Shown here: positions 1,499 through 27,360 of the stretch, piece by piece
How positions within the stretch are numbered: position 1 is the stretch's first letter
How the letters are laid out: each line of letters starts with the position of its first letter
From: Campylobacterota bacterium
GTDB taxonomy: Bacteria > Campylobacterota > Campylobacteria > Campylobacterales > Sulfurimonadaceae
Direction: 5' to 3'
Length of the DNA stretch: 31,028 nucleotides
Assembly (NCBI GenBank): GCA_034717975.1
Contig: JAYEMF010000139.1
Location: 1 to 31,028 of the forward strand
Made by a program: the position numbers and the translations under genes
Notes under the pieces: generated by a model
Seen by the model: only the letters and a program-made list of their open reading frames with translations
Databases searched by the model: none
Told to the model about the DNA's origin: nothing

Positions 1499-2737
1499 TT
1501 ACTTGGCGTCTTTACGTGCCTGTTCTCTGAGTTTGTCTTTTTTGCTCTTTTTTTTGCCTTTTACAGGTGCCGGGCCTTTCTCTATTTTAGGGGCTTCCCC
1601 TGTCAGTTCGTACCCCGCTATCTGTTCTCTCTCAAGCTTGATCTCGGAACGTTTCTCGATAAGTTTGAAATGGGCCTGCTCTTCATGCCCGATGAACGAG
1701 ACCGCCATGCCATACTTGCCGGCCCTCGCTGTCCTTCCGATGCGGTGGATGTAATCAGCCGGGGAACGGGGAAGGTCGAAATTGACAACACAGGAGATGT
1801 CGTTAATATCCAGCCCTCTTCCGACGAGGTCGGTAGCAAAGAGAATGCGGAATTTTTTCTCCTTGAACGCCTGTAACGTGTAGTTACGCTCCTCCTGGGT
1901 AAGGTCACCGTGAAACGAGTCGGCCGAAAAGCCGTACTTTCTAAATTTCGCTGCAATATTGTCCGCCGCTCTTTTATTGGCCATAAACACCAGGACCTGC
2001 TCCCACTTCTGGGTATCAAGAAGGTATCTGAGCAAGGGGCCGCGATTCTCACGGTTGACCTCAATGACGCGCTGGACAATACTCTCGACCGTCGGTGCCT
2101 CCTGTTCAAATGCGACTTCAACAGGGTTTTGCGTAATTCTGGAGGCGATAGCTACCATTTTTGGAGGATAGGTAGCAGAAAATAGAAGGTTTTGACGCTT
2201 TTCCGGCAGTTCCGGTAAAATGAGATCAAGCTCCTCGGAAAAGCCGAGATCAAGCATCTTATCTGCTTCGTCGAGAATAAGAAAATCCAGATGGGACAGG
2301 TTCATCTGCTTTTTACTCAGTACATCCAGCAGTCTGCCCGATGTCGCCACCACGATGTCACACCCCTGCTGAATGGCATAGAGCTGATCGCCAATGCTTT
2401 CACCGCCGATGATGCTGACCACCTTTGGCTTTTTCGATAAAAACGCACTGAAAGTCGCGAAGGTCCGGGCAAGCTGAAGCGTCAGCTCTCTGGTCGGGGT
2501 CAGCACCAGTGCCTTGATCTTCGCCTTCCCTTCACCGCGGCGCTTTGACCAAAGCTCCAAAACCGGCAGAACGAAGCTCGCACTTTTACCGCTTCCCGTC
2601 TGGGCCCTCGCCATGACATCATGGTCTGCGAGTACAAGCGGAATCACCTTTTCCTGAACGGGAGTCGGCTCGACATAGTTGTTTTCCCGAAGTGCACGCG
2701 CTATGTGAGATGAGAGTCCGAGTTTAGAAAATGGCAT
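1499..2737 (-). CDS. DEAD-box ATP-dependent RNA helicase (RhlE-like)
   Basis: Q motif PTPVQ, then AQTGSGKS, PTREL, DEAD, SAT and HRIGRTARAG, with a Lys-rich tail. The start was re-placed at MPFSKLGL (GAGG RBS, TAAAAT box at 2766-2771). Confidence 0.93.
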   Translation of the reverse strand: MPFSKLGLSSHIARALRENNYVEPTPVQEKVIPLVLADHDVMARAQTGSGKSASFVLPVLELWSKRRGEGKAKIKALVLTPTRELTLQLARTFATFSAFLSKKPKVVSIIGGESIGDQLYAIQQGCDIVVATSGRLLDVLSKKQMNLSHLDFLILDEADKMLDLGFSEELDLILPELPEKRQNLLFSATYPPKMVAIASRITQNPVEVAFEQEAPTVESIVQRVIEVNRENRGPLLRYLLDTQKWEQVLVFMANKRAADNIAAKFRKYGFSADSFHGDLTQEERNYTLQAFKEKKFRILFATDLVGRGLDINDISCVVNFDLPRSPADYIHRIGRTARAGKYGMAVSFIGHEEQAHFKLIEKRSEIKLEREQIAGYELTGEAPKIEKGPAPVKGKKKSKKDKLREQARKDAK

Positions 2738-2799
2738 TTGGGGTTTCCTCGTATTGTTTGTGCGTATTTTAGGAGGTTTGGGCTTTAGGGCAGATTTGA

Positions 2800-3333
2800 C
2801 TAGGCCCACTCTTCCTGTGTCACACTCACACTGTTCTCCCGTTCATCGAGTAGCAGCAGTTCAGCATCTTGAATGTTGCACTGAAGCTGCATAGAACGCT
2901 CTATCAGTGACTCCGGCTCCCCTGCAAAACTCAAGTGGATTAAACGTAGGTTTTTAAAGCGTCTGAGTTTGCCCTCGTTCTGTCGCCACCATGCATCAGC
3001 GGCTTTGTGGTTGTACGTGTAGATAATGACCTGCTCTGAGCGGCCGCAGGCTTTCCTGATGCGCTTTTCATCCGGCTGGCCAAGGTCGATCCAGAGTTCT
3101 ATCTCGCCGCCGAAATTTTTCTTCCACAGCTCCGGTTCATCTTCCTGGCTGAGTCCTTTGGTAAAACTCAGTGACTCATCGGCATGAAGCGCAAAGGCGA
3201 TAAGACGGACCATCATACGCAGGTTGTTTTCAGAGGGGTGCTGCGCGATAGTGAGATCAAAGTCGTTATAGTAGTGACGATCCATGTCGGCAACCGAGAG
3301 GGATACTTTGTAAATCGTAGCGCCTAGTGCCAT
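2800..3333 (-). CDS. yaeQ: YaeQ family protein
   Basis: MALGATIYK start, AQHPSE..RMMVRL, F.KGLS..DEPELW and LWIDLGQPDEKRIRKAC. Confidence 0.92.
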   Translation of the reverse strand: MALGATIYKVSLSVADMDRHYYNDFDLTIAQHPSENNLRMMVRLIAFALHADESLSFTKGLSQEDEPELWKKNFGGEIELWIDLGQPDEKRIRKACGRSEQVIIYTYNHKAADAWWRQNEGKLRRFKNLRLIHLSFAGEPESLIERSMQLQCNIQDAELLLLDERENSVSVTQEEWA

Positions 3334-4034
3334 CTTTTCTCCTTGCCTGTATAATCTGTGGAAGAAGATGAAACATTAACCATCTCATTCAACTCTGCCA
3401 ATCGCTGCGGGGTGCCGATATCCCGCCACTCACCCTCATACAGCTCACCGCTGATCTGATTTTGATCAATTGCTTTACGCAATAACGGCGCCAAGGGCTG
3501 TTTTCCGTAGTTCAAGTCCTGAAACAGTTTCGGGCTGTAGTAGCCGATACCGGAAAATGTCTGTTTGACGTCACCTTTGCCGGAGAGTCGATTCGACTCG
3601 AGCACGAAATCCCCTTTGAGATTATGTTCGGGATTTTCCACCAAAACCAGATGGGCAAGATCGTCTTCCAGATCAAATAAAGGATTAAATCCATAATCAG
3701 ACCAGACATCACCATTGACAACTAGAAACGGTTCATCACCCAGCAAGGGAAGCGCTTTGATAATGCCGCCTGCACTCTCCAATGCCCCCTTTTCCTGCTC
3801 ATCGGAGTAGGTGATGTTGACACCCCATTGGGAACCGTCGCCCAATGTTTCGGGAATCATAAAGCCTAAATGGGCGATATTTATAATGATCTCTTTAAAA
3901 CCGGAAGCAGCCAGCTTTTCGATCTGCCAGACAATCAGCGGCTTGCCATCTACTTCAAGCAGCGGTTTTGGAAGATGGTCTGTCAGCGGGCGCATCCGTT
4001 CACCACGGCCAGCTGCGAGGATCATCGCTTTCAT
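3324..4034 (-). CDS. murU: N-acetylmuramate alpha-1-phosphate uridylyltransferase
   Basis: MKAMILAAGRGERMRPLTD.LPKPL, LESAGGI, VVNGDVW and W.DIGTP. Shares an ATGA overlap with amgK. Confidence 0.88.
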   Translation of the reverse strand: MKAMILAAGRGERMRPLTDHLPKPLLEVDGKPLIVWQIEKLAASGFKEIIINIAHLGFMIPETLGDGSQWGVNITYSDEQEKGALESAGGIIKALPLLGDEPFLVVNGDVWSDYGFNPLFDLEDDLAHLVLVENPEHNLKGDFVLESNRLSGKGDVKQTFSGIGYYSPKLFQDLNYGKQPLAPLLRKAIDQNQISGELYEGEWRDIGTPQRLAELNEMVNVSSSSTDYTGKEKRWH

Positions 4035-4975
4035 GGGAGCTTTATACCTTTAAGCAGCGCTGTCAGTTCACGCGTCTCTTCGTAACGTTCGCCTGCCTCT
4101 AGAACATATTTCAGTGTTAGAGGAAGATCGTTAAGATAGCCATCTTTTCCATCACGCAGATAAAGTCTTGCAAAGACACCAAGGACTTTAATGTGTCGCT
4201 GCAATCCCATAAAATCGAACCACCTCAGAAAAGTTGCATCATCGACATCCAATCTCTTTAGATTGCGAAACTGTAACGCCAGTTTTTCGATCTCCGAGCG
4301 TTCATGGGTAATGTAGCAGTCTTTTAGCAGAGAAACCAGATCATAGGTCAATGCCCCGCTCATCGCATCCTGATAGTCAATGACACCCAGCTGATCAGCT
4401 GGAGTGAGCAGCATATTGCGAGAGTGGTAATCACGGTGGACAAAGAGATTTTGCGGCTGGGAAAGAACGACATCGGCGATACTGTCGAGTGTCTCGTCTA
4501 TGAGCTTTTTTTGTTCATCACTTAGTGACAGTTTCAGATATTTCTCTAAAAACCACTCCTGCATCAGCTCCATTTCGAAACGTAAAAAAGCTTTGTCATA
4601 TATCGGCAATCCTCTGGCATCACTCGCTTGCATGTTGACAATCGTTTTAATCGCTTTGATATAGAGATCTTTGTAGTTACTCTCATCGAGAATATCAAGA
4701 TAGTGGACGCTCCCAAAATCCTCGATGATCAAAAAGCCGTCATCCAGGTTTTGCTCGATGATATTGGGTGCATTGACTCCAGAGGCGAGAAGACGCCCGG
4801 TCACATCAAGAAAAGGAGTTAGGGACTCCTTTTCCAACGATGAGTCCATCAAAATATAGTTTTTGTCGCTATGTTGAAGCCTGAAGTAACGACGAAAACT
4901 GGCATCTTCAGAAGCAATTTCAACATTATAATCCCGCCAGCCGATGGCTTCCAGCCACGCTTTGATCTTATGCAT
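4031..4975 (-). CDS. amgK: Anomeric MurNAc/GlcNAc kinase (APH-like phosphotransferase)
   Basis: DASFRRYFR, HRDYHSRN, IDYQDA, YDLVSLLKDCY and QRHIKVLG.FARL..RDGK. The start was re-placed at ATG 4975, an 8-nt overlap with the anmK stop. Adjacent to murU. Confidence 0.88.
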   Translation of the reverse strand: MHKIKAWLEAIGWRDYNVEIASEDASFRRYFRLQHSDKNYILMDSSLEKESLTPFLDVTGRLLASGVNAPNIIEQNLDDGFLIIEDFGSVHYLDILDESNYKDLYIKAIKTIVNMQASDARGLPIYDKAFLRFEMELMQEWFLEKYLKLSLSDEQKKLIDETLDSIADVVLSQPQNLFVHRDYHSRNMLLTPADQLGVIDYQDAMSGALTYDLVSLLKDCYITHERSEIEKLALQFRNLKRLDVDDATFLRWFDFMGLQRHIKVLGVFARLYLRDGKDGYLNDLPLTLKYVLEAGERYEETRELTALLKGIKLP

Positions 4976-6053
4976 AAATGCCACCCAGTATGCCATTGGT
5001 ATCTGCACCTGTAACGGTTTTAAGTTCGACACTCTCTTTATGCAGCCGTTTATAGGCCAGCCAGGCGAAGGCCATCGCTTCTATATTGTCACTGCTGACA
5101 CCATAGGCATCAGTGGAAGCCACTTCAACCGAAGGTAAACATCGCTGCAGACGCTCCATCAAAAAGCTGTTTCTCACCCCTCCGCCACACACTAACAATA
5201 ACTCAGGTTCAAACTTCATCACCTCATCAGCAATCGATCGGACAGTCAACTCGCTTATCGTCGCTTGAATGTCCTGCGGATCAAGATGGCTAAATGGCTG
5301 TAGCTTGGATTCGAGCCACCCACTGTTAAAATACTCCCTGCCTGTACTTTTTGGCGCAGATTTTTTAAAATAGAGGTCATCAAGCAGTCTCTCTAAAAGT
5401 GATCTGTCGATCGTTCCACTGGCGGCCCATTGACCATCCTTATCATAGGGAAGACTCTTATGCTTATTGACCCATCCGTCGATCAGTACATTCCCCGGAC
5501 CGGTATCGTAGCCTGTCAACTGATCACCAATAAGTGTAATATTGGCCATACCGCCGATATTGACAATGGCACACCGCTGCGCAAGATTATGAAATAAAAA
5601 ATGGTGAAACGCCGGAGCAAAAGGTGCGCCCTGCCCGCCCAGTGCCATATCTTTACGCCTGAAATCCGCTACGACTTTAATCCCTGTCCTGGTGGTGACA
5701 ATATTTGGGTCACCCAGCTGCATGGTAAAAGGCATTTTACTGTCGGGCGCATGCCAGAGCGTCTGGCCATGCAGGCCGATCGCCTCGATACGTTCGGTAT
5801 CAAGGTCATACTTTGCTATCAGTGCCAAAACAGCATCAGCAAAAAGATGTCCGAGACGATGATCGATCTCACCCATTTTCGAGAGGCTTGCAGTGCCGCC
5901 AATAACTGCTAGGATCTCCTCTTTCAAGCTGTTTTCAAACGGATACTCCAGTGAGGCAGCCAGTTCAATACCATCTGCTCCGACAGGGCAGATCACCACA
6001 TCCACCCCATCCATACTCGTACCGGACATTACCCCGATATAACACTTTTTCAT
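4968..6053 (-). CDS. anmK: Anhydro-N-acetylmuramic acid kinase
   Basis: GVMSGTSMDGVD, HGQT, D.ALGGQGAP, NIGG.AN, DTGPGN, PKSTGRE and EAMAFAWL. Confidence 0.95.
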   Translation of the reverse strand: MKKCYIGVMSGTSMDGVDVVICPVGADGIELAASLEYPFENSLKEEILAVIGGTASLSKMGEIDHRLGHLFADAVLALIAKYDLDTERIEAIGLHGQTLWHAPDSKMPFTMQLGDPNIVTTRTGIKVVADFRRKDMALGGQGAPFAPAFHHFLFHNLAQRCAIVNIGGMANITLIGDQLTGYDTGPGNVLIDGWVNKHKSLPYDKDGQWAASGTIDRSLLERLLDDLYFKKSAPKSTGREYFNSGWLESKLQPFSHLDPQDIQATISELTVRSIADEVMKFEPELLLVCGGGVRNSFLMERLQRCLPSVEVASTDAYGVSSDNIEAMAFAWLAYKRLHKESVELKTVTGADTNGILGGIYA

Positions 6054-6094
6054 GTTAGTTTCCACATACGGCAAATATTTGCAGAGGCCATCTA

Positions 6095-7633
6095 CTACGC
6101 ATTTTTTTCCCTTTCCGATTTCCCCATACTTCCGCTACTTGATTGCACGATCATAAACGATACCATAGTCCCGATAACAAGCTGCCATGAAAACCCAAGT
6201 TTAAAATCAGTGACGTAACTTAAGATGTAAGGCTGTAGCAGCAACACCGTCATAAATCCGCCGATCAACCCAAACAGCACACTTTTTTGCGATCCACGTT
6301 TGGTAAAGATCGCCGAAAAGTAGACCCCAAGCAACCCGGAGTAGGCAAAGGCCATCACCCCGAGGGCGAAACTAAGCAGCGGCAGGTCGGTATAGCGCTG
6401 CCAAAAGTAGCTGATCATCGCCATGATAGAGAGCAACGCAGCAAAAACAACTACCGCGATACGAGCCGCTTTGACATAATGCTGCTCAGCCATCTCTGAA
6501 CGCGCTGACTTCCACGGACGGTAAAAATCCTCAATGGCGACCGATGACATGGCCCCGAGCACCGAAGTGGTCGATGAGAGCGCCGCAGCAATGGCTCCGA
6601 CAGTAACCAAGCCGCGCAGACCTTCGGGCATCTCATTCAAGATATAGGTCATAAACACCGTTATCTTCTCACCCTGAAAGCTCTGTTCAATACCACCGGC
6701 GCCAAAAGATGAAATCTCCGGATGCTGGTAGTAAAGGTAGAGCAGCAGACCGATTGCCAAAAAGAGGATATTTACAGGAAGACTGAAAACAATGGCATAG
6801 ATCAGTGAACGTGCCCCCTCTTTCTCACTTTTACAGCTTAGGACCCGCTGTGTCATATCCTGATCTAACCCAAATACGGCGATATTAAGCAGCAGCCAGC
6901 CGCTTAGCAGTGCCCAGATACTGAATTCACCTGAAAATGAAAAATCAAGCACCACTAACTTCTCATTACTCTCCAACAGCGAGACCATATTCCCAAGATC
7001 AGCGTTCAAAGCAGTGTACAGGTAGATAAGGACGGCCACGGCAGCACCAAGATAGGTAACTGCCTGAATGACGTCACTGTAGATGATCGAACGCACTCCG
7101 CCGACGTAGGTATAGGCCAGTGCCCCCGATATAAGGACGATGATGGAGATGGCGACATGCGATGCGATAATATCGCTGAACAGGATCATCGAAATAGCCA
7201 GGGCACCGATATAGAGCCGTGCACCGCTGGCAAAGAGGCGGCCGATGAGAAACATCGCTCCTGCCTCTTTTTTTGCAGGCTCTCCGTAACGGATCTCAAG
7301 CAGTTCATAGACAGTGACGGCACGGATCGCGTAAAAACGGGGAATCAGCACTTTGGCAACAAAGATGGCAGCCAGAAATCCCGACAGGGAGAACCCAAGC
7401 AGCGTCAGATCGTTACGATAGGAGAACTCCGGCCCGCCCAGAAATGTCGCGGCCGACTGGGCCGTGGCCAGTACCGACACGGCGACAGCCAGCATCGGCA
7501 TCGTGTTTCCTCCGACGAAATAGTCGCGCGAGGAGTCAATACCCCGGCGGCTCAGCCAGATTGATGTCCCTATCAACAGCAGAAAATAGCCGATAAAAAC
7601 GGTCCAGTCCAGCAGAGAAAATGTCGAGTTCAT
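6095..7633 (-). CDS. Sodium:solute symporter (SSS) family transporter, candidate amino-sugar/muropeptide importer
   Basis: About 13 hydrophobic segments with ATAQSAATFLGGP, GG.RSIIYSDVIQ, DQDMTQR.L and AAALSS. TGATG overlap with nagZ. Confidence 0.88.
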   Translation of the reverse strand: MNSTFSLLDWTVFIGYFLLLIGTSIWLSRRGIDSSRDYFVGGNTMPMLAVAVSVLATAQSAATFLGGPEFSYRNDLTLLGFSLSGFLAAIFVAKVLIPRFYAIRAVTVYELLEIRYGEPAKKEAGAMFLIGRLFASGARLYIGALAISMILFSDIIASHVAISIIVLISGALAYTYVGGVRSIIYSDVIQAVTYLGAAVAVLIYLYTALNADLGNMVSLLESNEKLVVLDFSFSGEFSIWALLSGWLLLNIAVFGLDQDMTQRVLSCKSEKEGARSLIYAIVFSLPVNILFLAIGLLLYLYYQHPEISSFGAGGIEQSFQGEKITVFMTYILNEMPEGLRGLVTVGAIAAALSSTTSVLGAMSSVAIEDFYRPWKSARSEMAEQHYVKAARIAVVVFAALLSIMAMISYFWQRYTDLPLLSFALGVMAFAYSGLLGVYFSAIFTKRGSQKSVLFGLIGGFMTVLLLQPYILSYVTDFKLGFSWQLVIGTMVSFMIVQSSSGSMGKSEREKNA

Positions 7634-8697
7634 CAGGCTTTTTTCCCATTATGGAAGTAGTGTTGGCGCAACGCATCGATGCGGGTGTTGGCCGCTTCAA
7701 TGGTTGAGAGCTTAATGGCATCCGATTGAACCTGCTTGTATATCACCTCAATAAGCTCATCAAGATCCTGATAAGCCAACTGATTGCCAAAGAGCAGCAT
7801 ATCTACCCCCGTATTGATCGCTAATGTCACTGTCTCTTCAAGCGGGTAATGTTCCGAGATCGCTTTCATCTGCAGGTCGTCACTGACGACAACACCCTCA
7901 AACCCAAGTTTCTTGCGTAAAAGACCGGTGTTAACGGCATAGGAGAGGGTTGCGGGGTACTGCGGATCGAGCCGGCGGTTAAACACGTGTGCGGTCATGA
8001 TCATATCGGCTTGCCTGTTATCAATCATGATCTTGTAAGCTTGCAATTCCGTCTCACTCCAGCTCTCACTCACATCGACAAAGCCTTCATGCGAATCATC
8101 CTGCGAGGAACCATGCCCCGGGAAATGCTTCAACACACTGATAATGCCTTGACGCTTCAAAGCATCACGGAAGGTACCTGCAAATCTCGCGACATGCTCA
8201 GGGTCTTTTCCATAGGAGCGTTCAAGCTTGACGATGACCTTGTTGGCCTCATTGATACGAAGATCGACTACCGGGGCAAAATCGCAGTTGATGCCATGCT
8301 CGTTCAGCATGCCTGCCAGATCGTCATAACTCGCTTTCGCATGCATCACATCACTCCCCGCACCGATGCTGGCGGCACTCGGTGTCTCTAAAAAACCGTA
8401 CTCCGGATTCAGTCGGGCCACCCGGCCACCCTCCTGATCGACGGCGATGATCAATGGCCGGGATGCGATCTGCTGCAGCTGTGTTGTCAATCGTTTGAGC
8501 TGTTGTGGATTTCGGATATTTTTAACACGGTCACGTTTATGATAGAAGCGGTCGAAAAGAATGACACCGCCAAGCGGATGCTCTTTTAGTTGACGGTAGA
8601 TCTTGCTTTGCGGTGTTACCGACTCATCATCAAAACCAACGATCAACATACCCGCAATCAGGCTCTTGATCTGCTTTTCTGACGAGGAAGTATGCAA
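7633..8697 (-). CDS. nagZ: GH3 beta-N-acetylglucosaminidase (NagZ), no signal peptide evident
   Basis: GGVILF, VDQEGGRVARL, FAPVVD, the NagZ signature KHFPGHGSSQDDSH, MTAHV and SDDLQM. TTG at 8697 just after the rny stop is preferred over ATG 8823, which overlaps rny; ATG 8649 is also possible. Confidence 0.9.
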   Translation of the reverse strand: MHTSSSEKQIKSLIAGMLIVGFDDESVTPQSKIYRQLKEHPLGGVILFDRFYHKRDRVKNIRNPQQLKRLTTQLQQIASRPLIIAVDQEGGRVARLNPEYGFLETPSAASIGAGSDVMHAKASYDDLAGMLNEHGINCDFAPVVDLRINEANKVIVKLERSYGKDPEHVARFAGTFRDALKRQGIISVLKHFPGHGSSQDDSHEGFVDVSESWSETELQAYKIMIDNRQADMIMTAHVFNRRLDPQYPATLSYAVNTGLLRKKLGFEGVVVSDDLQMKAISEHYPLEETVTLAINTGVDMLLFGNQLAYQDLDELIEVIYKQVQSDAIKLSTIEAANTRIDALRQHYFHNGKKA

Positions 8698-8701
8698 TGT
8701 T

Positions 8702-10270
8702 CTAGCGTGCGAACTCGATCGCACGGCTCTCTCTGATGACATTGACTTTGATCTCACCGGGGTACTGTACCCGCTGTTCGATCTCTTCGGCGATCTCTTT
8801 AGCCAGTAGGACCGATTCATCATCCGTTACCAGAGCAGCATTGACCATAACACGTACCTCACGGCCTGCATTGATCGCATAGACCTGTTTGACACCCGGT
8901 TTTTCCGAAGCGATCTCTTCGATCTCCGTCACCCGCTTTAAAAAACTCTCAAGAACCTCTCGACGCGCACCCGGACGCGCAGCCGACAGTGCATCTGCCG
9001 CACAGACAGCGGCACACTCGATCGTCTTGATCTCTTCATGTCCATGATGTGCATAGATGGCATTGATCACGACATCATCTTCATTGTAGCGCCGACAGAT
9101 CTCGGCTCCCAGATCGACATGGTTACCCTCATGATCGTGTGTCAATGCTTTACCGATATCGTGCAGCAGTCCTGCACGTTTGGCCAGCAGCGGATCACCG
9201 CCCATCTCTGCCGCCATGATTCCAGCCAGATGCGCCACTTCAAGGGTGTGTGCCAGGGCATTTTGCCCGTAACTTGCACGATAGCGAAGGCGCCCGATCA
9301 GCTTGGTCAACTCCTCAGGCATGGCACCCAATCCAAGTTCATAAAGGAGATCTTCACCCTCATGCAAAATAGAGTCTTCGAACTCTTTGGTCACTTTTTC
9401 ATAGATCTCTTCGATCCGTGCCGGCTGGATACGGCCGTCCTCGATGAGCAGTTCAAGCGTTTTTGTCGCAATCGCGCGTCGGTAAAGGTTGAAGCTGCTA
9501 ATCATCATCGTGTTCGGTGTATCATCTATAATAATATCGACACCAAGCAGCATCTCAAGCGTCTTGATATTACGTCCCTCTTTGCCGATGATACGCCCTT
9601 TCAGCTCATCATCGTTCAGATGGATAATATTGATCAGACGCTCCGAGGCAAACTCTCCGGCAAAGCGAGATGTCGCCTGTGCCAAGATATAGTTTGCCCG
9701 ACGGGATGCATCGGCTTTCGCTTCATTCTCATAACGTCGGACAATGTGTGCCATATCGGCACGTGACTTCTCTTCAACCTGTTTAAGCAGAAGCTCTTTT
9801 GCCTCGTCACGGGTCATCCCGGCTGAGCCTTCAATATGTTTCATCGCCTCGTCAAGACGTGTCTCATAATCGATCTTGAGTTTTTCGAGTGCTCTCTCAT
9901 TACGCTCAGCGGTCAGTCGCTGACTTTCCAGCACCCTGCGTTCATCTTTAAGTTTTTGCTGCTCATCCTGACGGAAAGTTTCAAACTTTTTCTCCTGACG
10001 CTGAACCCCGTCTTCTCTATCTGAAAGATCACGTTTTGCGCGTTCCGCCGCCTCATCATAATTTCTTCTGGCATTGTGTTCAATCTCTTGTGCTTTGAGA
10101 TTTGAACGGTTTAAGAGCAGTTCGGCTTCATTCTCAATCGCTTTGGCTTTTGCTTTGGCCTGTGCTACATATATATCAAAATGTGAAGCTGTCACCTTCT
10201 TAGAAATTAGAAAACCGACGACCCCGCTTATGGTGGCAATCCCGCCGCCTAAGAGTATTTCGTTTAACAT
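8702..10270 (-). CDS. rny: Ribonuclease Y
   Basis: N-terminal TM helix, coiled coil, KH domain (KGRIIGKEGRNI) and HD domain (LLHDIGKA, ADALSAARPGARRE). The start was re-placed at MLNEILL. Confidence 0.97.
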   Translation of the reverse strand: MLNEILLGGGIATISGVVGFLISKKVTASHFDIYVAQAKAKAKAIENEAELLLNRSNLKAQEIEHNARRNYDEAAERAKRDLSDREDGVQRQEKKFETFRQDEQQKLKDERRVLESQRLTAERNERALEKLKIDYETRLDEAMKHIEGSAGMTRDEAKELLLKQVEEKSRADMAHIVRRYENEAKADASRRANYILAQATSRFAGEFASERLINIIHLNDDELKGRIIGKEGRNIKTLEMLLGVDIIIDDTPNTMMISSFNLYRRAIATKTLELLIEDGRIQPARIEEIYEKVTKEFEDSILHEGEDLLYELGLGAMPEELTKLIGRLRYRASYGQNALAHTLEVAHLAGIMAAEMGGDPLLAKRAGLLHDIGKALTHDHEGNHVDLGAEICRRYNEDDVVINAIYAHHGHEEIKTIECAAVCAADALSAARPGARREVLESFLKRVTEIEEIASEKPGVKQVYAINAGREVRVMVNAALVTDDESVLLAKEIAEEIEQRVQYPGEIKVNVIRESRAIEFAR

Positions 10271-10823
10271 CTTTTGTCCCCGTTTTGCCGTAGCACGCCT
10301 GTGGGGTGACAAGCCAGTCAGCTTCAATATCGTAGTGGTCACAAATGTGCTCATCGGAGACACAACGTTCTAGCTGAACAAATAATATAGTGGGTTTATC
10401 TTTTAATCGGGCAAAGAAACGGTCATACATCCCTTTACCAAAACCTATTCTTCTAGCGTCGGCATCCACACCGACAGCCGGTACTACAGCAATATCAATT
10501 TTAGTTATTTTTCTTATTGTATTTCCCGCTTCATATATTCCAAACTGTTTACGTGTCAGCGGTAATCTAAATGGTACCATCTTGAAACTGACACCTTCCA
10601 TAAATGGCAGATAAACCTCGACGTGACGGGGCAGTGACCAGAGAAGTTTACGAAGATCCGCTTCGAATGGCAGCGGCCAGTAAAGAAGAATTCTTTTGGC
10701 ACCGGAGGCATCTATAACAGCTTGCAGGTTTTGCTGAAGCAGTGCTTCTTTATAGCGTTTATTGTGCTTTGATTTGCTTTTGAGCCGACCAAGGCAGTAG
10801 TCTCGAAATGCGCTTTTATCCAT
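10200..10823 (-). CDS. 5-formyltetrahydrofolate cyclo-ligase
   Basis: VVPAVGVD...RIGFGKGMYDRFF and D.YDI.AD. Positioned upstream of rny as in other Campylobacterota. Confidence 0.9.
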   Translation of the reverse strand: MDKSAFRDYCLGRLKSKSKHNKRYKEALLQQNLQAVIDASGAKRILLYWPLPFEADLRKLLWSLPRHVEVYLPFMEGVSFKMVPFRLPLTRKQFGIYEAGNTIRKITKIDIAVVPAVGVDADARRIGFGKGMYDRFFARLKDKPTILFVQLERCVSDEHICDHYDIEADWLVTPQACYGKTGTKDVKRNTLRRRDCHHKRGRRFSNF

Positions 10824-14458: not shown

Positions 14459-15133
14459 ATGGTACTGAATGATTTTGCACAGGGAAATGAAGTGTTTCAA
14501 CGTGCCTACTTTAAAAAGCATGAAACTGAGCTCTTAGAACTGGTCAATAAAGGGCAAAATCCTAAAGCTCTCTTTATTGGCTGTTCCGACTCACGTGTCA
14601 TCCCTGACCTTATCATTCAGTCCAAACCCGGTGACCTCTTTGTTGTACGCAATGTCGGGAATTTTGTCCCTCCCTATAAACCCGACGAAGATTATCACTC
14701 AACCGCATCCGGGATAGAGTACGCTGTCAAGGTACTGAACGTCTCAGAGATCATCGTCTGCGGACATACCCATTGCGGTGCATGTAAAACACTTTTTCAG
14801 CCGGTCAATGACCCAGATCTTGTTCACATTAAAAAGTGGCTGGACCTTGGTGAACGTGCAAAGTCAATGGCACTGCTCAGCCTTGGGGCTGATGCTGATC
14901 CTGAAGAGCTGCTTCGTCTTACCGAACGTATGTCTGTCATCACCCAGATCGACAATCTTCTAACCTATCCGTTTGTCAAAGAGCGGCTGGAAAAAGAGGA
15001 ACTCTTTATCCACGGTTGGTACTATGACATTGAAACAGGTAACATTGACTACTACGACCCGGACACCTACCAGTTTTCACCTCTGACAAAACTGGCCGAC
15101 CAGTGCAAAATAAAACTCCCTAACAACCATTGA
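14459..15133 (+). CDS. can: Beta-class carbonic anhydrase
   Basis: Zn ligands in CSDSR and HTHCG, plus GDLFVVRNVGN and HGWYYDIETG. Confidence 0.93.
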   Translation: MVLNDFAQGNEVFQRAYFKKHETELLELVNKGQNPKALFIGCSDSRVIPDLIIQSKPGDLFVVRNVGNFVPPYKPDEDYHSTASGIEYAVKVLNVSEIIVCGHTHCGACKTLFQPVNDPDLVHIKKWLDLGERAKSMALLSLGADADPEELLRLTERMSVITQIDNLLTYPFVKERLEKEELFIHGWYYDIETGNIDYYDPDTYQFSPLTKLADQCKIKLPNNH

Positions 15134-15157
15134 ACATAGACCTTTAATTGCCGATAT
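15131..15157 (+). promoter_or_regulatory. Putative sigma28 (FliA)-type promoter upstream of fliL
   Basis: TGAA-N15-GCCGATAT compared with the consensus TAAA-N15-GCCGATAA. A sigma70-like TACAAT also lies at 15216-15221. Confidence 0.35.
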
Positions 15158-15252
15158 TGTCTGCAGAAAATAAGCAGAAGAGACGGTTTTTAGTCCATTT
15201 TGATATGGCTTCCGGTACAATCTTGCTATAAAAAATAATTTAAGGTAACCAC

Positions 15253-15795
15253 ATGGCTGAAGAAGAGCAAACAGAGGAAGAGACATCCGGCGAAGAGAAA
15301 AAATCCAGTAACCTGATGCTTATCATCGTTATTGTTGTCCTGGTTCTTGTTATCCTCGTTGGTGCAGTTGTCGCAATTTTGATGATGGGCGGCGAAGATG
15401 ACGAACAGGTACAGCGGCGGACACCACAAGCAAATGAACGTCCGGCACATCAACAGGGTGCTTCGTCTGATTACACTGCACCATTGGCCGAAATCGGACC
15501 AATGTTCCCACTCGATACGTTTACGGTCAACCTGCTCTCTGAGAGTGGCCGTCGTTACCTGAAAGTCGAGATGAATCTTGAACTTGGCGGTGAAGAGCTT
15601 GGTGCGGAACTTGACAGTAAAACAGCTGTTGTACGTGACATCGTTATCCGTCTTCTCTCTTCCAAATCTCTCGAAGAGATCTCTACTGCCAAAGGGAAAG
15701 AGAAACTAAAAGAGCAGATCGTCGACCAGCTCAATATGCGTCTGCGTGACGGTCGCATTAACAATGTCTATTTTACGGAGTTTGTCGTTCAGTGA
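15253..15795 (+). CDS. fliL: Flagellar basal body-associated protein FliL
   Basis: Single N-terminal TM helix, F.VNL...GRRYLK, RD..I.LLSSK..EE..T.KGK and VYFTEFVVQ. Confidence 0.95.
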   Translation: MAEEEQTEEETSGEEKKSSNLMLIIVIVVLVLVILVGAVVAILMMGGEDDEQVQRRTPQANERPAHQQGASSDYTAPLAEIGPMFPLDTFTVNLLSESGRRYLKVEMNLELGGEELGAELDSKTAVVRDIVIRLLSSKSLEEISTAKGKEKLKEQIVDQLNMRLRDGRINNVYFTEFVVQ

Positions 15796-16151
15796 TCGGT
15801 ATTGATCTTATTAAAACAGATCGCATGAAGCGCATGATGGAGCGTTTCGGCGATAAAGCCCTTCTTCGTTTTTTATCTCCGGATGAACTTGATTTAGTTA
15901 AAAACTTCACCACTGCAGCCGGATTTTGGGCCGTTAAAGAGGCCTGCTCCAAAGCACTTGGGACAGGTATTGGTTCGAACTGCTCTTTTCATGACATCGT
16001 AATCAGTAAAACAGATAAAGGTGCACCGACACTACACCTTTCACAGAAGCTTATCGATCAATTCAATATAGAAGACAGTTCCGTCTCCATTACCCATGAT
16101 GGTGACTATGCCATCGCTGTTGTCGTCTTGGAAGTTAAAAAGGGATGTTGA
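15792..16151 (+). CDS. acpS: Holo-[acyl-carrier-protein] synthase
   Basis: IGIDL, AGFWAVKEACSKALGTGI, GAP and SITHDGDYAIAVV. GTGA overlap with fliL. Confidence 0.95.
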   Translation: MIGIDLIKTDRMKRMMERFGDKALLRFLSPDELDLVKNFTTAAGFWAVKEACSKALGTGIGSNCSFHDIVISKTDKGAPTLHLSQKLIDQFNIEDSSVSITHDGDYAIAVVVLEVKKGC

Positions 16152-16410
16152 ATTTAAACTTTGGGTTTTTGATGATCTTCTCAACATCACCTTCGCTCTC
16201 TGTCTCTATCTGAACAGGCTGATTGAGCGCCTCACGCTTATTTTTCTCCTCTTCTATCTGATCTACTGCACTATTATCGGTATGAGAAGGCAATGAAGTT
16301 GTATCTTTCTCAGCAGCTTCACCCTTGAGTGGCGGCGGGGGAGTCAGCAGATGCGTGGCATCTTCTGCCAGGAGTAAAGCGGAGATCAAAAGCATTAAAA
16401 CAGATCGCAT
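16135..16410 (-). CDS. Small hypothetical protein with probable signal peptide
   Basis: MRSVLMLLISALLLA leader and a Pro-rich stretch. Follows thiS on the same strand; its 3' end overlaps acpS by 17 nt. Confidence 0.6.
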   Translation of the reverse strand: MRSVLMLLISALLLAEDATHLLTPPPPLKGEAAEKDTTSLPSHTDNSAVDQIEEEKNKREALNQPVQIETESEGDVEKIIKNPKFKFNIPF

Positions 16411-16439
16411 GCTACGCCCTGCCTGGCAATCATACTATC

Positions 16440-16640
16440 TCAACCACCACCGACAAAATCAAGCAGTTCGACTTTATCACCTTCATTAAGCTGGTGCTCA
16501 CCCCACTGCTCCTGCTTGACAATATTCATATTGACAGCGGCTGCCATCACTTTTCCTTCAAGGTTTAAAAGTTCAAGCAGCATCTGTAATGTACTACTTT
16601 CATTCACTATTCTATCTTCACCATTTACTATTACTGTCAC
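16440..16640 (-). CDS. thiS: Sulfur carrier protein ThiS
   Basis: 66 aa with VNGE, AAAVNMNIV, L.EGDKVELL and a C-terminal VGGG. Confidence 0.92.
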   Translation of the reverse strand: MTVIVNGEDRIVNESSTLQMLLELLNLEGKVMAAAVNMNIVKQEQWGEHQLNEGDKVELLDFVGGG

Positions 16641-17167
16641 TCTTTTTTTCCTCGCATATAGTTTTGTAGTTCATTGGCTGCTGCGTGATTTTTCTTTAGC
16701 ACAGCAAAATCATAAGGGGTATAGCCATCCTCATTTTTCACAAACGGGTCAGCCCCCACTTTCAGCAAAAAAGCCACGATCTCTTTTCGACCGCTGAATG
16801 CCGCCTGATGAAGCGGTGAGATCTCATCATCATTCGCCAGATCGGCATCAGCTCCATTGACAACGATAAACTTCACCAACTCCAGGTTTTTCTTTTTAAC
16901 AGCCAGTATCAGTACCGTATTGCCGCGATTATCCTGAGCATTGAGATCAGCCCCTGCATCCAGCAAACATTTTGCCAGTTTCAGATCACGCTTTTTAATA
17001 GCCACATGCAAGGGCGTCAAACCGGCACTGTTCTTGGTATTGACATCATTTCCGTCACGAAGCAGCTGCTCGACTTTGATCTGATCTTCATAAAAGACTG
17101 CCTCATGCAGCGGCGGTTGCGCCATTAACATACTCATCATCAAAACCGTCAGTAAAACATGTCGCAT
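16637..17167 (-). CDS. Ankyrin-repeat protein with probable signal peptide
   Basis: Repeats PLHEAV, GLTPLHVAI, GNTVLILAV, ISPLHQAA and GYTPYDFA, with a hydrophobic N-terminus. Confidence 0.9.
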   Translation of the reverse strand: MRHVLLTVLMMSMLMAQPPLHEAVFYEDQIKVEQLLRDGNDVNTKNSAGLTPLHVAIKKRDLKLAKCLLDAGADLNAQDNRGNTVLILAVKKKNLELVKFIVVNGADADLANDDEISPLHQAAFSGRKEIVAFLLKVGADPFVKNEDGYTPYDFAVLKKNHAAANELQNYMRGKKE

Positions 17168-17304: not shown

Positions 17305-17319
17305 GGGCACCTCTAAATT
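17305..17319. mobile_element. Possible isolated IS5-family/MITE-like terminal inverted repeat
   Basis: GGGCACCTCTAAATT resembles, from recall only, the GGGCACCTCTAA ends of IS5-like elements and MITEs. It sits exactly at the cluster boundary. No transposase or second copy is in the window. Confidence 0.35.
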
Positions 17320-18521
17320 CAAATATAAAGCTTTTTGCCCATAGATGATATTGAAATTTCATCTAACTGCTTTAATGAAAATGAAAAATTCAATGTTCCG
17401 AATGCACTAACAAGAAGTTTTGTTATCTCTTGATGTGTCACAGGAGCGTTCGCCTGGAAAACTATTTCCAACTTTTCATCACGTAGTCCCTCGTTGTTCT
17501 TAATAGTAACAATAGCCTTATCAACGTTATCAAGCTTTTCAATGATCTGCTCGATCTGGGCCGTGGATATCCTTTTCCCGGCGATCTTGGCAATTCTACC
17601 ACTTCGTCCGATTAATTCAAAGGAGCCGTCAGGCTGTGCAGTAATGATATCTTCGGTCTGGAAAGGGAGGTGTTGCGGTTCTATTTGAGCTTTCAAAAGA
17701 TAGCTTGAGACATAAGGAGATGTTACAGCCAAATACTCTGCAGATTGTGAGATCTCTACATCCGGAAGCGGTGACCACAAAGATGAACCATTGTATTTAT
17801 AGGCAATCCCACCTGTTTCAGTAGAGCCGAACAGTTGCAGAAGATCAGACAGATAATGGGAATGAAAAGTGTCAGCCTCTTCGGGTGCCAGTGGACCTGT
17901 AGAGCTCAGAAAAAGGGTATGTGGCATCTTTTCAGGACGTTTTAACCGGTTGAGTGCCCGGATAAAAACCGGAGTCGTAACAATAAGAGTCCCGGGCTGG
18001 CTGGCTTCATGCAAAAGCTCATCAGGTAAAAACTCCTCTTTAACGACTAACTCTGCACCGATATAATTTGGCAGAAGCACCCCTGCAAGAATCCCGTAAA
18101 TGTGTACATAAGGTACAGTTGCCACCACACGGCTAATCGCGTAAGGCTCGATCAATGAAGCGAGAGCCTGCAGCTCACGCTCGATATTCCCTCGGCTCTT
18201 AAGTGCTCCCACCGGGAAACCGGTACTGCCTGAGGTGAAAAAAAGAAGTGCAGCCTCTTTTGAAATATAAGAGGGTTTAGCAGAACCCTCAGGCAGAGGA
18301 CAGATATCCATCTCGGCGATACGTTCTGCCAGAGCTTTATGGTTATTGTCATAAAGCACTGTACAGACTCCATTCTTCAACGCATTAAAAAAGATCATGA
18401 TCTGCTGCTGTTTAGAAGCACCCTGAAGTGTACCCCAACGCCTACTCTCTGACATCATCCGGGTATTTTGCACTGTTTGGGTGCTTCGGCCGCCGTCGGG
18501 ACTTATATAGGTTAGTCTCAT
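17319..18521 (-). CDS. AMP-binding acyl-CoA/acyl-ACP synthetase (ApeH/XanA2-like starter ligase)
   Basis: FTSGSTG.P, FGSTETGG, GR..RIAKIAGKRIS and terminal SMGKK. Confidence 0.88.
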   Translation of the reverse strand: MRLTYISPDGGRSTQTVQNTRMMSESRRWGTLQGASKQQQIMIFFNALKNGVCTVLYDNNHKALAERIAEMDICPLPEGSAKPSYISKEAALLFFTSGSTGFPVGALKSRGNIERELQALASLIEPYAISRVVATVPYVHIYGILAGVLLPNYIGAELVVKEEFLPDELLHEASQPGTLIVTTPVFIRALNRLKRPEKMPHTLFLSSTGPLAPEEADTFHSHYLSDLLQLFGSTETGGIAYKYNGSSLWSPLPDVEISQSAEYLAVTSPYVSSYLLKAQIEPQHLPFQTEDIITAQPDGSFELIGRSGRIAKIAGKRISTAQIEQIIEKLDNVDKAIVTIKNNEGLRDEKLEIVFQANAPVTHQEITKLLVSAFGTLNFSFSLKQLDEISISSMGKKLYI

Positions 18522-20632
18522 CGCATCCCTTTCAGAAGTATATGCATGGCAATAATTCCTGTTGTAATCGTTATCCCGATGGAAAAGAGAGCAGTTATAC
18601 TGCTGAAAATCAATACACCGAATCCGGCAAACGTACTAAGCAGTGCGTACCGTATTGCATGTCTGGTCTGATGCTGTGCTTTGGAACGGCTCATATAGAT
18701 ACCATAATCGATCCCTATCGCCAAGAGAATGATCAATGCGAACAGATGCATAATATTCAGTGGGCCAAGAAGGGATATGATCAGCAGAGAGGCTGCTATA
18801 GGGAAAAGCATAAAGTTAAGTGCATAAAAAAACCGTCTTCGAACCGCTACAGCCAGCAAGATCAGGATAATCCCCAATGCTGCCACACTGTAGTTCACTA
18901 TCTGGCCATGCATGATCGAGGCACTCTTTTCCAGAGACTTGGCAATATCGAGAGGTTCAACAAAAGAGAGGGGCTGAACACTCTGCATCTCTTCAGGAAC
19001 AATCAGTGCCAGCGAAATATAACGCTCTTCAAAAGCGATAACAGGCATATGCATGCGCTTTAATACCTCCAGCCCTTCTCCTATATCACATGATGGCAGA
19101 TCACGGGTGAAGTTATAGGCATTTTCGAAAAGGCCTTTTCGAAACCCAAGCTGCTCTGCTGATGCAGAGATACTGCTGCGCAATGCACTGAAATCGATGG
19201 AGGCCAACAGCTCTTTTCTCTCCCGGCAGCGCTTTTGGTCCAAAGCAAAAAGGGCTGCAGAGAGAGATGACGGTGCACGCGACTGCAGCTCCTGCGCAAA
19301 GCCAAGAAGCTGATCTTGCGTATCGGCTTGTATCAGAACCGGAACATACTGTTTTTGGTTGAGTGCTTCTGTAAACTGCTTTTCTATACTCTGCAGGGAG
19401 TTGTTTTGATAATCAAGATGACGCAGGTTGGTATCAAAGGTGATCTGTTTCAGAGCAATAAACAGAAAAACAGCACTAACCACTGTAACAACAACCGGAT
19501 GGAGTCTGAAATGGTTTTCCCTATCTGTTTTTGTAGGCTTTGCCTGCTGGAGATCGAGATAGGGAAAAACAGAGGTAAAGAGCAGGTAAGCGGCAAGCAG
19601 GGCAATGGCAGAGAAAAAACTCATCTGTGATACAAGGGGAATGGGGATCGTATAGAGGATCATAAAGGCGATAAAAGTCGTTATGAAACCAAAGAAGATA
19701 TCTTTGTCGAATGCCACTTTACGCTGAGTGTAGCGGTTATGGAAAAAGTTGTGGAACATATAATCGATGCTCACGGTACTGATGCTGATACCAAATGCCA
19801 GGGCCATCAGGTTGATGGTCTCAAAAACAGAAGAGCTTAACAGCAGTGCGGCCAGGATGGAAGAGCCCAGGGCGATAAGGGTCTGACTCAAAAGATGGAT
19901 GTTGCGTAAAATAATCCAGTAGATCAAAATCAGCAGAATGGATGAGATGAAGATGATTTTTGTAACATCACCTTGTATGACACCGCTGTTCTCAACCGAA
20001 TAGAAAAAAGGTGAAAAGGCCAGAGTATCGGGATACGGTGAGAGAATGAATTTAACCTCATGATAGAGGAGCTTGGCCTCTTTCAGATCTGCCGGGCTTA
20101 CTGTCGTACGTGCACGCAGTAAAAACCCAAACTCAGGCAGTGTCAAAGAGGAGTGGAACGAGGGAGGCTGAGCCACGTTTGGCAAGGTGAAGAGGCCAAG
20201 GGGGTCTGCGGTGTTGATAGGGGTATACATCGCAGCGTTAAATTGACGCTCCCGTACTCTTTCGAGTCTCTGATAGATGGAAGATTCTGAGAGGTCAGTT
20301 TCATGGAATGTCGACAGGAGAGGATAATGCGCCTGCAGGTACGATTGTGTTTTCTGATCTGGCACTGCGGAAGTCTCTACTGAAGTTACGGAGGGATTCT
20401 CTATGAGTCGTGACGCAATCTTCTCTATCGTCCCTTTTGAAGTCGAACTAAAACCCTTTACGGCAATAAGCAGTTCATTGGAGTAGCCCATTTTGTCTGC
20501 AGCATTGACAGTTTCCAGCGTTTTTGGCGAAGCGAACAGCTCGATGAGATTGGTTGAAAAGTTTATCTGTTTATGAAAAGCAGCGGCTGTGCCTAGCAGG
20601 AAGAGAAAAATCAGAAGATTAAGGAATCGCAT
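18518..20632 (-). CDS. MMPL-family membrane exporter (ApeM-like)
   Basis: Two TM bundles separated by periplasmic loops, with SIDY..H, GIDYGIY and STFAGFGVLIFS. ATG 20656 is the alternative start. Confidence 0.85.
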   Translation of the reverse strand: MRFLNLLIFLFLLGTAAAFHKQINFSTNLIELFASPKTLETVNAADKMGYSNELLIAVKGFSSTSKGTIEKIASRLIENPSVTSVETSAVPDQKTQSYLQAHYPLLSTFHETDLSESSIYQRLERVRERQFNAAMYTPINTADPLGLFTLPNVAQPPSFHSSLTLPEFGFLLRARTTVSPADLKEAKLLYHEVKFILSPYPDTLAFSPFFYSVENSGVIQGDVTKIIFISSILLILIYWIILRNIHLLSQTLIALGSSILAALLLSSSVFETINLMALAFGISISTVSIDYMFHNFFHNRYTQRKVAFDKDIFFGFITTFIAFMILYTIPIPLVSQMSFFSAIALLAAYLLFTSVFPYLDLQQAKPTKTDRENHFRLHPVVVTVVSAVFLFIALKQITFDTNLRHLDYQNNSLQSIEKQFTEALNQKQYVPVLIQADTQDQLLGFAQELQSRAPSSLSAALFALDQKRCRERKELLASIDFSALRSSISASAEQLGFRKGLFENAYNFTRDLPSCDIGEGLEVLKRMHMPVIAFEERYISLALIVPEEMQSVQPLSFVEPLDIAKSLEKSASIMHGQIVNYSVAALGIILILLAVAVRRRFFYALNFMLFPIAASLLIISLLGPLNIMHLFALIILLAIGIDYGIYMSRSKAQHQTRHAIRYALLSTFAGFGVLIFSSITALFSIGITITTGIIAMHILLKGMR

Positions 20633-22358: not shown

Positions 22359-22599
22359 CACTTACTTGCATAACAAAACGGACGACATCTCCAACGGTAC
22401 GCAAATTTTTTGCCTCCTCATTGTTCACTTCGATATCCAGTTCATTATCCAAGGTAACCATAAGGTCGATTGCATCAAGGCTGTCGAGCTCCAGGTCTGT
22501 AAACAGGTTCGACTCCATCGTCATAGCATCTTTTTCTACTTCAAACTCTTCATGTAAAATAGCTGTAATCTTAGTGTAAACCTCTTCTTCTTGTAACAT
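22351..22599 (-). CDS. Acyl carrier protein
   Basis: Acidic 82-aa protein with the phosphopantetheine site DLELDSLDAIDL and TVGDVV. Confidence 0.95.
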   Translation of the reverse strand: MLQEEEVYTKITAILHEEFEVEKDAMTMESNLFTDLELDSLDAIDLMVTLDNELDIEVNNEEAKNLRTVGDVVRFVMQVSDE

Positions 22600-22602
22600 A
22601 AA

Positions 22603-27357: not shown

Positions 27358-27360
27358 CTA

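Follow-up and report, generated by a model that had tools for sequence, protein, structure and literature searches.

The 31,028-nt stretch of DNA considered here (contig JAYEMF010000139.1 of assembly GCA_034717975.1, from a Campylobacterota bacterium of the Sulfurimonadaceae; hereafter the window) carries on its minus strand a compact group of genes for the salvage of peptidoglycan sugars, in which a permease of the sodium:solute symporter (SSS) family stands in the position of the importer. This permease very probably imports a wall sugar containing N-acetylmuramic acid (MurNAc) or its anhydro form (anhMurNAc; either of the two is written (anh)MurNAc below). The fuller reading, slightly favoured here, is that of a Na+-coupled inner-membrane importer of peptide-free peptidoglycan sugar, in the window the disaccharide of N-acetylglucosamine (GlcNAc) and anhMurNAc, which would feed the enzymes AnmK, AmgK and MurU. 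It draws on gene content, synteny, phyletic pattern, the distribution of signal peptides and a pattern of residues in the permease, all of which are direct observations.

A salvage operon with an SSS permease

Coordinates were taken from a listing of open reading frames (ORFs) and from direct reading of the minus strand. Both bore out the gene order nagZ-SSS-anmK-amgK-murU and the spacing given in the original prediction. Gene nagZ (7633-8697) encodes a GH3 beta-N-acetylglucosaminidase of a YbbD-like branch, without signal peptide, and overlaps by 1 nt the gene of the candidate Na+-coupled wall-sugar importer (6095-7633; 512 aa). A spacer of 41 nt (6054-6094) lies between the stop codon of the latter and the ATG of anmK (4968-6053; anhydro-N-acetylmuramic acid kinase), which overlaps by 8 nt an amgK-like gene (4031-4975; anomeric MurNAc/GlcNAc kinase with an aminoglycoside phosphotransferase (APH) fold), itself overlapping by 4 nt murU (3324-4034; MurNAc-alpha-1-phosphate uridylyltransferase). 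In a consensus scan, the spacer contained no terminator-like site, and the only such site on the minus strand within the block was a weak one inside the SSS gene (6342-6324). The order SSS-anmK-amgK-murU is not due to chance, because it recurs in dozens of genomes.

AnmK and MurU scored above their equivalog cut-offs (NF007139, 482.9 versus 367 bits; NF045761, 309.3 versus 250 bits), AnmK matching PF03702 as well (472 bits). The third enzyme remained below the AmgK cut-off (NF045759, 248.2 versus 550 bits; PF01636, 90 bits). It was nevertheless named AmgK-like because NF045759 was its best match by far, because its translation displayed HRDYHSRN and IDYQD, which we take to be catalytic motifs of the APH type, and because of its synteny with anmK and murU, a vicinity conserved in 49 of the 80 related loci described below. 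NagZ was slightly under its cut-off (NF003740, 192.4 versus 207 bits), this model still being its best match, and displayed a clear GH3 domain (PF00933, 217 bits). Its intact frame of 354 codons retains the motifs KHFPGHGSSQDDSH and VVSDDLQM, the former fitting KH(F/I)PG(H/L)GxxxxD(S/T)H, which is presumably the NagZ-type motif. Its nearest solved structures were 3TEV, 6K5J and the Bacillus subtilis lipoprotein YbbD (144.5 bits), the NagZ of Vibrio cholerae ranking behind the latter (115.6 bits); all of the nearest solved chains were beta-N-acetylglucosaminidases.

Family and transport sites of the permease

The permease matched PF00474 (the SSS family, TC 2.A.21) with 95.6 bits (cut-off 22.8; residues 38-459 over model positions 1-406) and TIGR00813 with 153.8 bits, under the cut-off of 184. 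Only generic SSS models were matched and every NCBIfam match was below its cut-off. The protein is an SSS member and not one of the major facilitator superfamily (MFS), and no homology with the AmpG branch was found. Its relatives number in the thousands; two alignments were used, one of 50 SSS sequences (A1) and one of 14 (A2).

The closest solved homologue was the Na+/sialic acid symporter SiaT (5NV9; 132 bits with a single sequence, 246.7 with a profile). Its ligand and ion sites, as given in PMC5931594, were mapped onto the permease by HMMER alignment. The Na2 site of SiaT (A56, A339, S342 and S343) aligned with A56, A350, S353 and S354, the two serines being conserved in 41 and 39 of the 50 sequences of A1, and the equivalents of the Na3 site were D187, T356 and S357. 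The carboxylate-binding residues S60 and T63 were invariant in A2 and nearly so in A1 (49/50 and 48/50), and two further invariant residues of A2, R132 and R139, lie on the same helix as R135 of SiaT. This pattern fits Na+ coupling and an acidic-sugar substrate for the predicted transporter.

A tree of 74 family members united the proteins from Campylobacterota with the gammaproteobacterial ones in one clade (support 100), apart from the branches with NanM-fused and NamZ-fused forms. The latter are represented by a protein (P0263, 913 aa) in which an SSS permease is naturally fused to the exo-beta-N-acetylmuramidase NamZ; it belongs to another SSS branch and suggests another link, distinct from the present one, between SSS proteins and MurNAc. 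Two further proteins (P0235 and P0270) displayed the sialate mutarotase NanM, with its Kelch repeats, fused to an SSS permease, and are probable importers of sialic acid that carry their own mutarotase.

Gene neighbourhood and distribution of the clade

A scan of species-representative genomes with A2 yielded 80 best-scoring genome loci (48-70% identity). Their neighbours were sought by tblastn with the proteins of the window and with NamZ, Amidase_2, MurQ, MurK-like kinase and MurR from related loci. At least one peptidoglycan-sugar gene was present within 6 kb of the SSS gene in 76 of the 80 loci, and in 56 of the 58 with at least 2.5 kb on each side. Most frequent were anmK (57 loci), amgK (49), murU (46), Amidase_2 (46) and nagZ (35), followed by namZ (7), murQ (7), a murK-like gene (6) and murR (5). 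Metagenome loci displayed the same association in 19 of 20 cases. The link with anmK, nagZ and murQ, a survey of which had been proposed as a check, was found in two phyla.

Among 201 sampled Campylobacterota genomes, the permease (E<=1e-60) and AnmK were found in the same seven, where they are adjacent, and neither was found in the other 194. AmpG did not exceed its cut-off in any of the 201, and the seven genomes displayed no match to it at E<=1e-5.

Members of the clade were found in Campylobacterota and in a small number of Gammaproteobacteria. The SSS gene of Vibrio and Cardiobacteriaceae is followed by a kinase gene of the BadF/BadG type (MurK-like), anmK and murQ, and murR and a canonical nagZ of divergent orientation are found upstream of it in Vibrio. 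The Microbulbifer locus is arranged as murR followed by SSS-murK-like-murQ, beside genes for NamZ, LdcA and an HGSNAT-like protein, and in Woeseiaceae, murQ and a gene for a TonB-dependent receptor adjoin the SSS and AnmK-like genes. One further genome with the clade (G413) was encountered among 301 sampled Gammaproteobacteria genomes, its SSS gene having murQ and an AnmK-like neighbour no more than 4 kb away. Since AmpG was present in all four gammaproteobacterial SSS genomes of these groups, the permease is not simply a replacement of AmpG. As a separate observation, the opposite strand of the Microbulbifer locus (L092, 8966-20258) encodes the HGSNAT-like protein, NamZ, a protein of a Na+/H+ antiporter family, LdcA and a beta-lactamase-fold protein, which places both candidate types of MurNAc importer side by side.

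Importers and recycling enzymes in the genome

The window contained no MFS or phosphotransferase system (PTS) gene, as had been stated for ampG and murP, and no nan gene. The search was extended to the whole assembly (2.52 Mb, 99.9% complete), as the original prediction had proposed. It revealed no match to TIGR00901 (AmpG), none that was AmpG-like among nine MFS matches, no tblastn match to four gammaproteobacterial AmpG proteins better than E = 0.6, and no match to the PTS EIIC component. No membrane protein of the HGSNAT type (MurT-like; PF07786) was matched either. MurQ was not found, the sole match (24 bits) falling on a SIS-domain frame of 604 aa that was taken for GlmS, and neither NamZ, LdcA nor Mpl was found.

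The genome encodes four SLT-domain proteins, a single NagZ, which is that of the window, and a single Amidase_2, located on another contig and preceded by a signal- or lipoprotein-like N-terminus. Judged by its predicted proteins, it is able to make anhydro-muropeptides and to strip peptides from them outside the cytoplasm, and it displays no recognizable enzymes of peptide reuse and no known wall-sugar importer. Salvage would be limited to the sugar, since no AmpD, LdcA or Mpl was found. Because MurA is also present (575 bits), the AnmK-AmgK-MurU route is a bypass and does not reflect an auxotrophy.

Location of NagZ

Signal peptides were called with a simple rule on hydrophobicity, complemented by visual inspection. 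The NagZ of the window lacks a hydrophobic signal peptide in any reading of its N-terminus, which agrees with what had been claimed for it, although this is the exception and not the rule among its relatives: the NagZ beside the SSS gene displayed a clear signal peptide in most of them, including both congeners. NamZ and Amidase_2 of related loci also displayed signal peptides, and the three Amidase_2 genes that were read (in L027, L046 and L053) are all located directly upstream and all encode one. In one congener (G201), the order is nagZ (with signal peptide), amidase, SSS and anmK. Most of the clade thus looks periplasm-first, glycans being presumably trimmed to (anh)MurNAc outside the cytoplasm and the monosaccharide being imported.

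NagZ without signal peptide was found in the window, in three metagenome-assembled genomes labelled Sulfurimonas and in Arcobacteraceae, the latter repeating the architecture of the window, with nagZ followed by SSS-anmK-amgK-murU. In the window, the intact 3' end of rny (RNase Y) occupies the place where relatives encode the signal peptide of NagZ. The start codon of nagZ is a TTG located 4 nt past the stop codon of rny, with an alternative ATG at 8649, and an ORF of 396 aa that extends to 8823 lies inside rny and is hydrophilic there. Contigs from two further runs of the same study spanned the junction between rny and nagZ without any difference, and the 1.5 kb upstream of nagZ in the congener displayed no match to rny.

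Two side observations concern this gene. In the three Sulfurimonas-labelled genomes, a 377-aa ORF without Pfam family, identified by tblastn, directly precedes nagZ; in the two loci for which coordinates are given (L081, 2544-3677; L090, 7831-8964) it displays a start-stop overlap with nagZ and no Pfam match, and a homologue with 48% identity is located elsewhere in the genome of the window (C149:57018-58196). Within nagZ of the window, contigs of three runs carry a stretch of 202 nt at 8220-8423 that is diverged and of unchanged length, and one run's contig displays a 1-nt deletion at 8400 that is offset by an insertion after 8407, which points to strain variation inside nagZ with preservation of the frame.

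A pocket signature that accompanies the loss of the signal peptide

The permease of the window and seven sequences of a second lineage displayed A58, L78, S82, A280 and S284 (referred to as ALSAS). In the other Campylobacterota, these positions were occupied by S or T (58), F (78; L in four and Y in one), Y or F (82), S (280; A in two) and T (284; I in one), and all five substitutions lead to smaller side chains. Of the ligand contacts of SiaT, T58 and F78 align with positions 58 and 78; position 82 aligns with Y83, beside Q82.

All eight ALSAS loci displayed an adjacent NagZ that was either devoid of a signal peptide (six) or ambiguous (two). Among non-ALSAS loci with a readable adjacent NagZ, a signal peptide was present in 23 out of 23 genome loci and nine out of nine metagenome loci. 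The contrast extends to the congener G201, the SSS protein of which (72% identity to that of the window) displays SFYST and accompanies an amidase and a NagZ that is exported. Among database proteins, the five closest (P0001-P0005, 76-96% identity) displayed AL[S/F/T]AS, a pattern absent from the next 115, and the metagenome scan brought relatives of 62-69% identity and none above 70%. AmpG did not exceed its cut-off in the genomes of the seven other ALSAS proteins, six of which displayed no match at E<=1e-5.

The two ALSAS lineages appear to be separate. With the congener included, IQ-TREE grouped the window with the congener and placed the other ALSAS group elsewhere, and the approximately unbiased (AU) test rejected a union of the window with that clade (difference in log-likelihood 25.4, p 0.0096). 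A sister relationship of the window to the ALSAS clade, obtained in the FastTree tree of 74 members (support 90), was dropped after this test, and a larger FastTree tree did not settle the position of the window. When residues exclusive to the window and all seven other sequences were counted, the window displayed three (58, 82 and 284), the other 66 sequences scoring 0.12 on average and two at most.

It looks as if a cytoplasmic NagZ, which would leave the disaccharide as the periplasmic product, goes together with an enlarged transporter pocket. This correlation between the missing signal peptide and the changed pocket is why a disaccharide was reconsidered as the substrate in the window. 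More tentatively, and with the balance leaning somewhat against it, an importer of (anh)MurNAc may have been retuned to GlcNAc-anhMurNAc at least twice independently, through S/T58A, F78L, Y82S, S280A and T284S, with the signal peptide of NagZ lost each time and the glycosidase step shifted from periplasm to cytoplasm.

Proposed pathway

In the pathway proposed here, in which the substrate, the coupling to Na+ and every enzymatic step are predicted from sequence, the action of lytic transglycosylases would give rise to periplasmic GlcNAc-1,6-anhMurNAc-peptides, from which an exported Amidase_2 would take off the peptide. The next step, in most relatives, would be the liberation of (anh)MurNAc by an exported NagZ (or NamZ), and the permease would import this monosaccharide. 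In the window, the ALSAS permease would import GlcNAc-anhMurNAc together with Na+, and the cytoplasmic NagZ would split it. AnmK would convert the anhydro sugar to MurNAc-6-phosphate, a MupP-like phosphatase (a candidate step) would yield MurNAc, and AmgK and MurU would complete the route to UDP-MurNAc. That the ALSAS variant takes the disaccharide is considered a little better than an even bet. The disaccharide is proposed for the window because its NagZ lacks a signal peptide and its permease carries five substitutions by smaller residues.

The general part of the original prediction, an AmpG-independent importer of wall sugars, was strengthened by these computational tests, and the peptide-bearing substrate it had allowed is unlikely, given the exported-type Amidase_2 and the fact that no LdcA or Mpl was found. 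Of the Pseudomonas-type route, AnmK, the AmgK-like kinase and MurU were recovered and MupP was not. Its description of the host as probably marine found no backing, the runs that contain this DNA being labelled brine metagenome.

Several points weigh against the disaccharide and, some of them, against the pathway as a whole. To our knowledge, no SSS member has been reported as a disaccharide carrier, and we know of no SSS substrate as large as GlcNAc-anhMurNAc. A review of prokaryotic SSS proteins published in 2021 mentions neither muramic acid nor peptidoglycan. Within the protein, R135, which binds the carboxylate in SiaT, aligns with Ala135 and not with an arginine, and no ligand contact is documented for positions 280 and 284, which are separated by a single turn of the next helix. 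Four of the 80 loci (L032, L035, L045 and L055) displayed no peptidoglycan gene near the SSS gene, two of them having short flanks. MupP, which acts between AnmK and AmgK, was not identified: three of the four HAD_2 matches of the genome reached 86, 55 and 43 bits with the MupP model NF009696, against a cut-off of 359, and the AnmK branch is therefore not closed. No conserved phosphatase gene was found in related loci, where the genes inserted among SSS, anmK, amgK and murU are heterogeneous (toxin-antitoxin systems, restriction enzymes, HtrA-like proteases, Zn peptidases and VanY).

The signature itself calls for similar reserve. The association between pocket and signal peptide represents two independent lineages only and carries no statistical weight as a count. 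Three signal-peptide calls were changed by eye (L079 to positive, L084 and L086 to ambiguous), and the group submitted to the AU test was named with knowledge of the trees. With a less strict count, seven residues of the window were shared with the other ALSAS clade, a value exceeded by other sequences (up to ten). One ALSAS genome (G507) contains an AmpG-like MFS protein, below cut-off (116 bits).

Literature searches brought no paper that ties SSS proteins to AnmK/NagZ, AmgK/MurU, MurT or MurNAc, with the limit that subscription papers and supplements may hold more.

Alternative explanations

The most serious alternative, which we nevertheless hold to be unlikely, is that the permease of the window, too, imports (anh)MurNAc only and that the lack of a signal peptide in NagZ is a side effect of the rearrangement that brought rny to its upstream position. 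NagZ would then either be idle or receive its substrate in some other way, and the main use of the operon would be the salvage of free (anh)MurNAc that other cells release. The locus indeed looks rearranged when set against the nagZ-amidase-SSS-anmK order of the congener, and the prevalence of exported NagZ, NamZ or amidase among relatives, both congeners included, would agree with monosaccharide uptake. So would the small size of the known SSS substrates, the identity of the nearest structure (SiaT), and the gammaproteobacterial members, which adjoin monosaccharide kinases (MurK-like and AnmK) and coexist with AmpG in four out of four genomes. An idle NagZ is nonetheless difficult to reconcile with its retained catalytic motifs, its intact frame and its 1-nt coupling to the SSS gene. 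Without a periplasmic NagZ or NamZ, moreover, the cell's own turnover would give no free anhMurNAc, and the Arcobacteraceae repeat both the architecture and the five substitutions.

That the permease carries another solute, either one with a place in the pathway (GlcNAc, for example) or an unrelated one, appears improbable. In favour of this reading, AmgK reportedly phosphorylates GlcNAc as well, no family model indicates a substrate for the permease beyond the generic SSS models, related branches are NanM-fused and probably transport sialic acid, and of the substrate-binding pair of SiaT neither R135 nor Q82, which aligns with Phe81, is conserved. The one-to-one co-occurrence of the permease and AnmK across the 201 Campylobacterota genomes argues for a substrate with muramic acid, as do the gammaproteobacterial partners (MurR, MurQ, AnmK and the MurK-like kinase, not nagA or nagB), and S60, T63 and the two invariant arginines of the third transmembrane helix would suit an acidic sugar.

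That the permease duplicates the full function of AmpG and takes up intact anhydro-muropeptides (GlcNAc-anhMurNAc-peptide) is scarcely credible: the absence of AmpG and the cytoplasmic NagZ of this genome would agree with it, but no cytoplasmic amidase of the AmpD type and no LdcA or Mpl for peptide reuse were found, the sole Amidase_2 has a signal- or lipoprotein-like peptide, those within 6 kb of the SSS gene in 46 of the 80 loci were of the exported type in the three cases read, and such a substrate would probably be very large for an SSS pocket.

Relation to known systems

With GlcNAc-anhMurNAc as the favoured substrate in the window, the permease would hold the same place in the pathway as AmpG of Escherichia coli and Pseudomonas (MFS, TC 2.A.1.25), ahead of a cytoplasmic NagZ and AnmK. 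In contrast to AmpG, it has the LeuT fold of the SSS family, which is unrelated to the MFS, its coupling ion is probably Na+ instead of H+, and its substrate is probably free of peptide. The anabolic shortcut of Pseudomonas reportedly runs through AnmK, MupP, AmgK and MurU. AnmK, an AmgK-like kinase and MurU are likewise encoded together in the window, with the differences that the importer is an SSS protein and not AmpG, that all steps are gathered in one operon and that MupP was not identified.

In the muropeptide rescue of B. subtilis, NagZ (YbbD), AmiE and NamZ act outside the cell and uptake is performed by MurP. The relatives of the window resemble it by their exported YbbD-like NagZ, their exported amidase and, sometimes, a NamZ beside the importer. 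They differ in that uptake would proceed through an SSS protein instead of a PTS and that the sugar would be led to UDP-MurNAc by AmgK and MurU instead of MurQ; in the window, the signal peptide of NagZ is lost in addition.

SiaT of Proteus mirabilis (5NV9; PMC5931594) shares with the permease the Na2 and Na3 equivalents and S60/T63, and its substrate is likewise an acidic N-acetyl amino sugar. It differs by R135 and Q82, in place of which the permease displays the A2-invariant R132 and R139, and no nan genes are located near the gene of the permease. The NanM-fused forms are found on a different branch of the tree.

In PMC5790795, PMC7670621 and bioRxiv 2021.12.02.470905, MurT of Tannerella forsythia (Tanf_08375), encoded in the cluster namZ1-murT-murK-murQ, is described as a non-PTS inner-membrane importer of free MurNAc, and the logic of this cluster recurs in the gammaproteobacterial SSS-murK-murQ loci. 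Its family is given in PMC5790795 as 'sodium symporter superfamily' in the introduction and 'major facilitator superfamily' in the discussion. MurT was considered as an SSS homologue on the strength of the former and then dropped, as later papers imply a family with an HGSNAT domain; MurT is probably not homologous to the permease of the window. YejBEF-YepA of Agrobacterium tumefaciens, according to the abstract of PMC9790009, is an importer of muropeptides of the ATP-binding cassette (ABC) type in bacteria that lack AmpG and keep recycling enzymes. It offers a precedent for muropeptide import without AmpG, but is driven by ATP and unrelated in sequence to SSS proteins. The proposal made here brings together a pathway and a transporter family that are each already known, in a pairing that is new.

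Surrounding genes

The operon probably extends beyond nagZ and murU. It would include rny (8702-10363, minus strand; TIGR03319, 594 bits, with a match that reaches the last of the 514 model positions), separated from nagZ by 4 nt on the upstream side, and, on the other side, yaeQ (2800-3333, minus strand; PF07152, 235.6 bits) and a gene for a DEAD-box RNA helicase (1499-2809, minus strand; PF00270 and PF00271). The overlaps between murU and yaeQ and between yaeQ and the helicase gene are both of 10 nt. Gene yaeQ is probably co-transcribed and has no known role in the pathway. Genes of RNA metabolism (1499-3333 and 8702-10823) thus flank the salvage genes nearly without spacing, and the best promoter-like site on the minus strand (10869-10840) was located upstream of a 5-formyl-tetrahydrofolate cyclo-ligase gene.

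Further away, positions 14459-17167 encode a beta-class carbonic anhydrase, FliL and an ankyrin-repeat protein of 176 aa. On the minus strand, 17319-28886 holds a series of genes of one orientation, for an AMP-binding enzyme, two proteins without Pfam family, an acyltransferase, a ketoacyl synthase, an amine oxidoreductase, a short-chain dehydrogenase (SDR)/ketoreductase, an aromatic amino acid ammonia-lyase, an LpxL-type acyltransferase and a family-2 glycosyltransferase. This series resembles pigment and lipid clusters of the aryl-polyene or flexirubin type.

Significance

Uptake of wall sugars in bacteria devoid of AmpG and MurP is known for a few groups only, and the SSS clade described here is a clear candidate for a further class of importers. 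If the twofold retuning considered above is true, the permease of the window would be the first disaccharide transporter of the SSS family and a functional equivalent of AmpG outside the MFS, and it would offer a natural case in which a transporter changed its specificity as its partner enzyme changed compartment. The contrast between NagZ with and without signal peptide, paired with a pocket signature of five residues, constitutes a ready-made test of substrate specificity. As the predicted route bypasses MurA and MurB, it would bear on intrinsic tolerance to fosfomycin, and it may also bear on the way in which chemolithotrophs of saline habitats save carbon and nitrogen.

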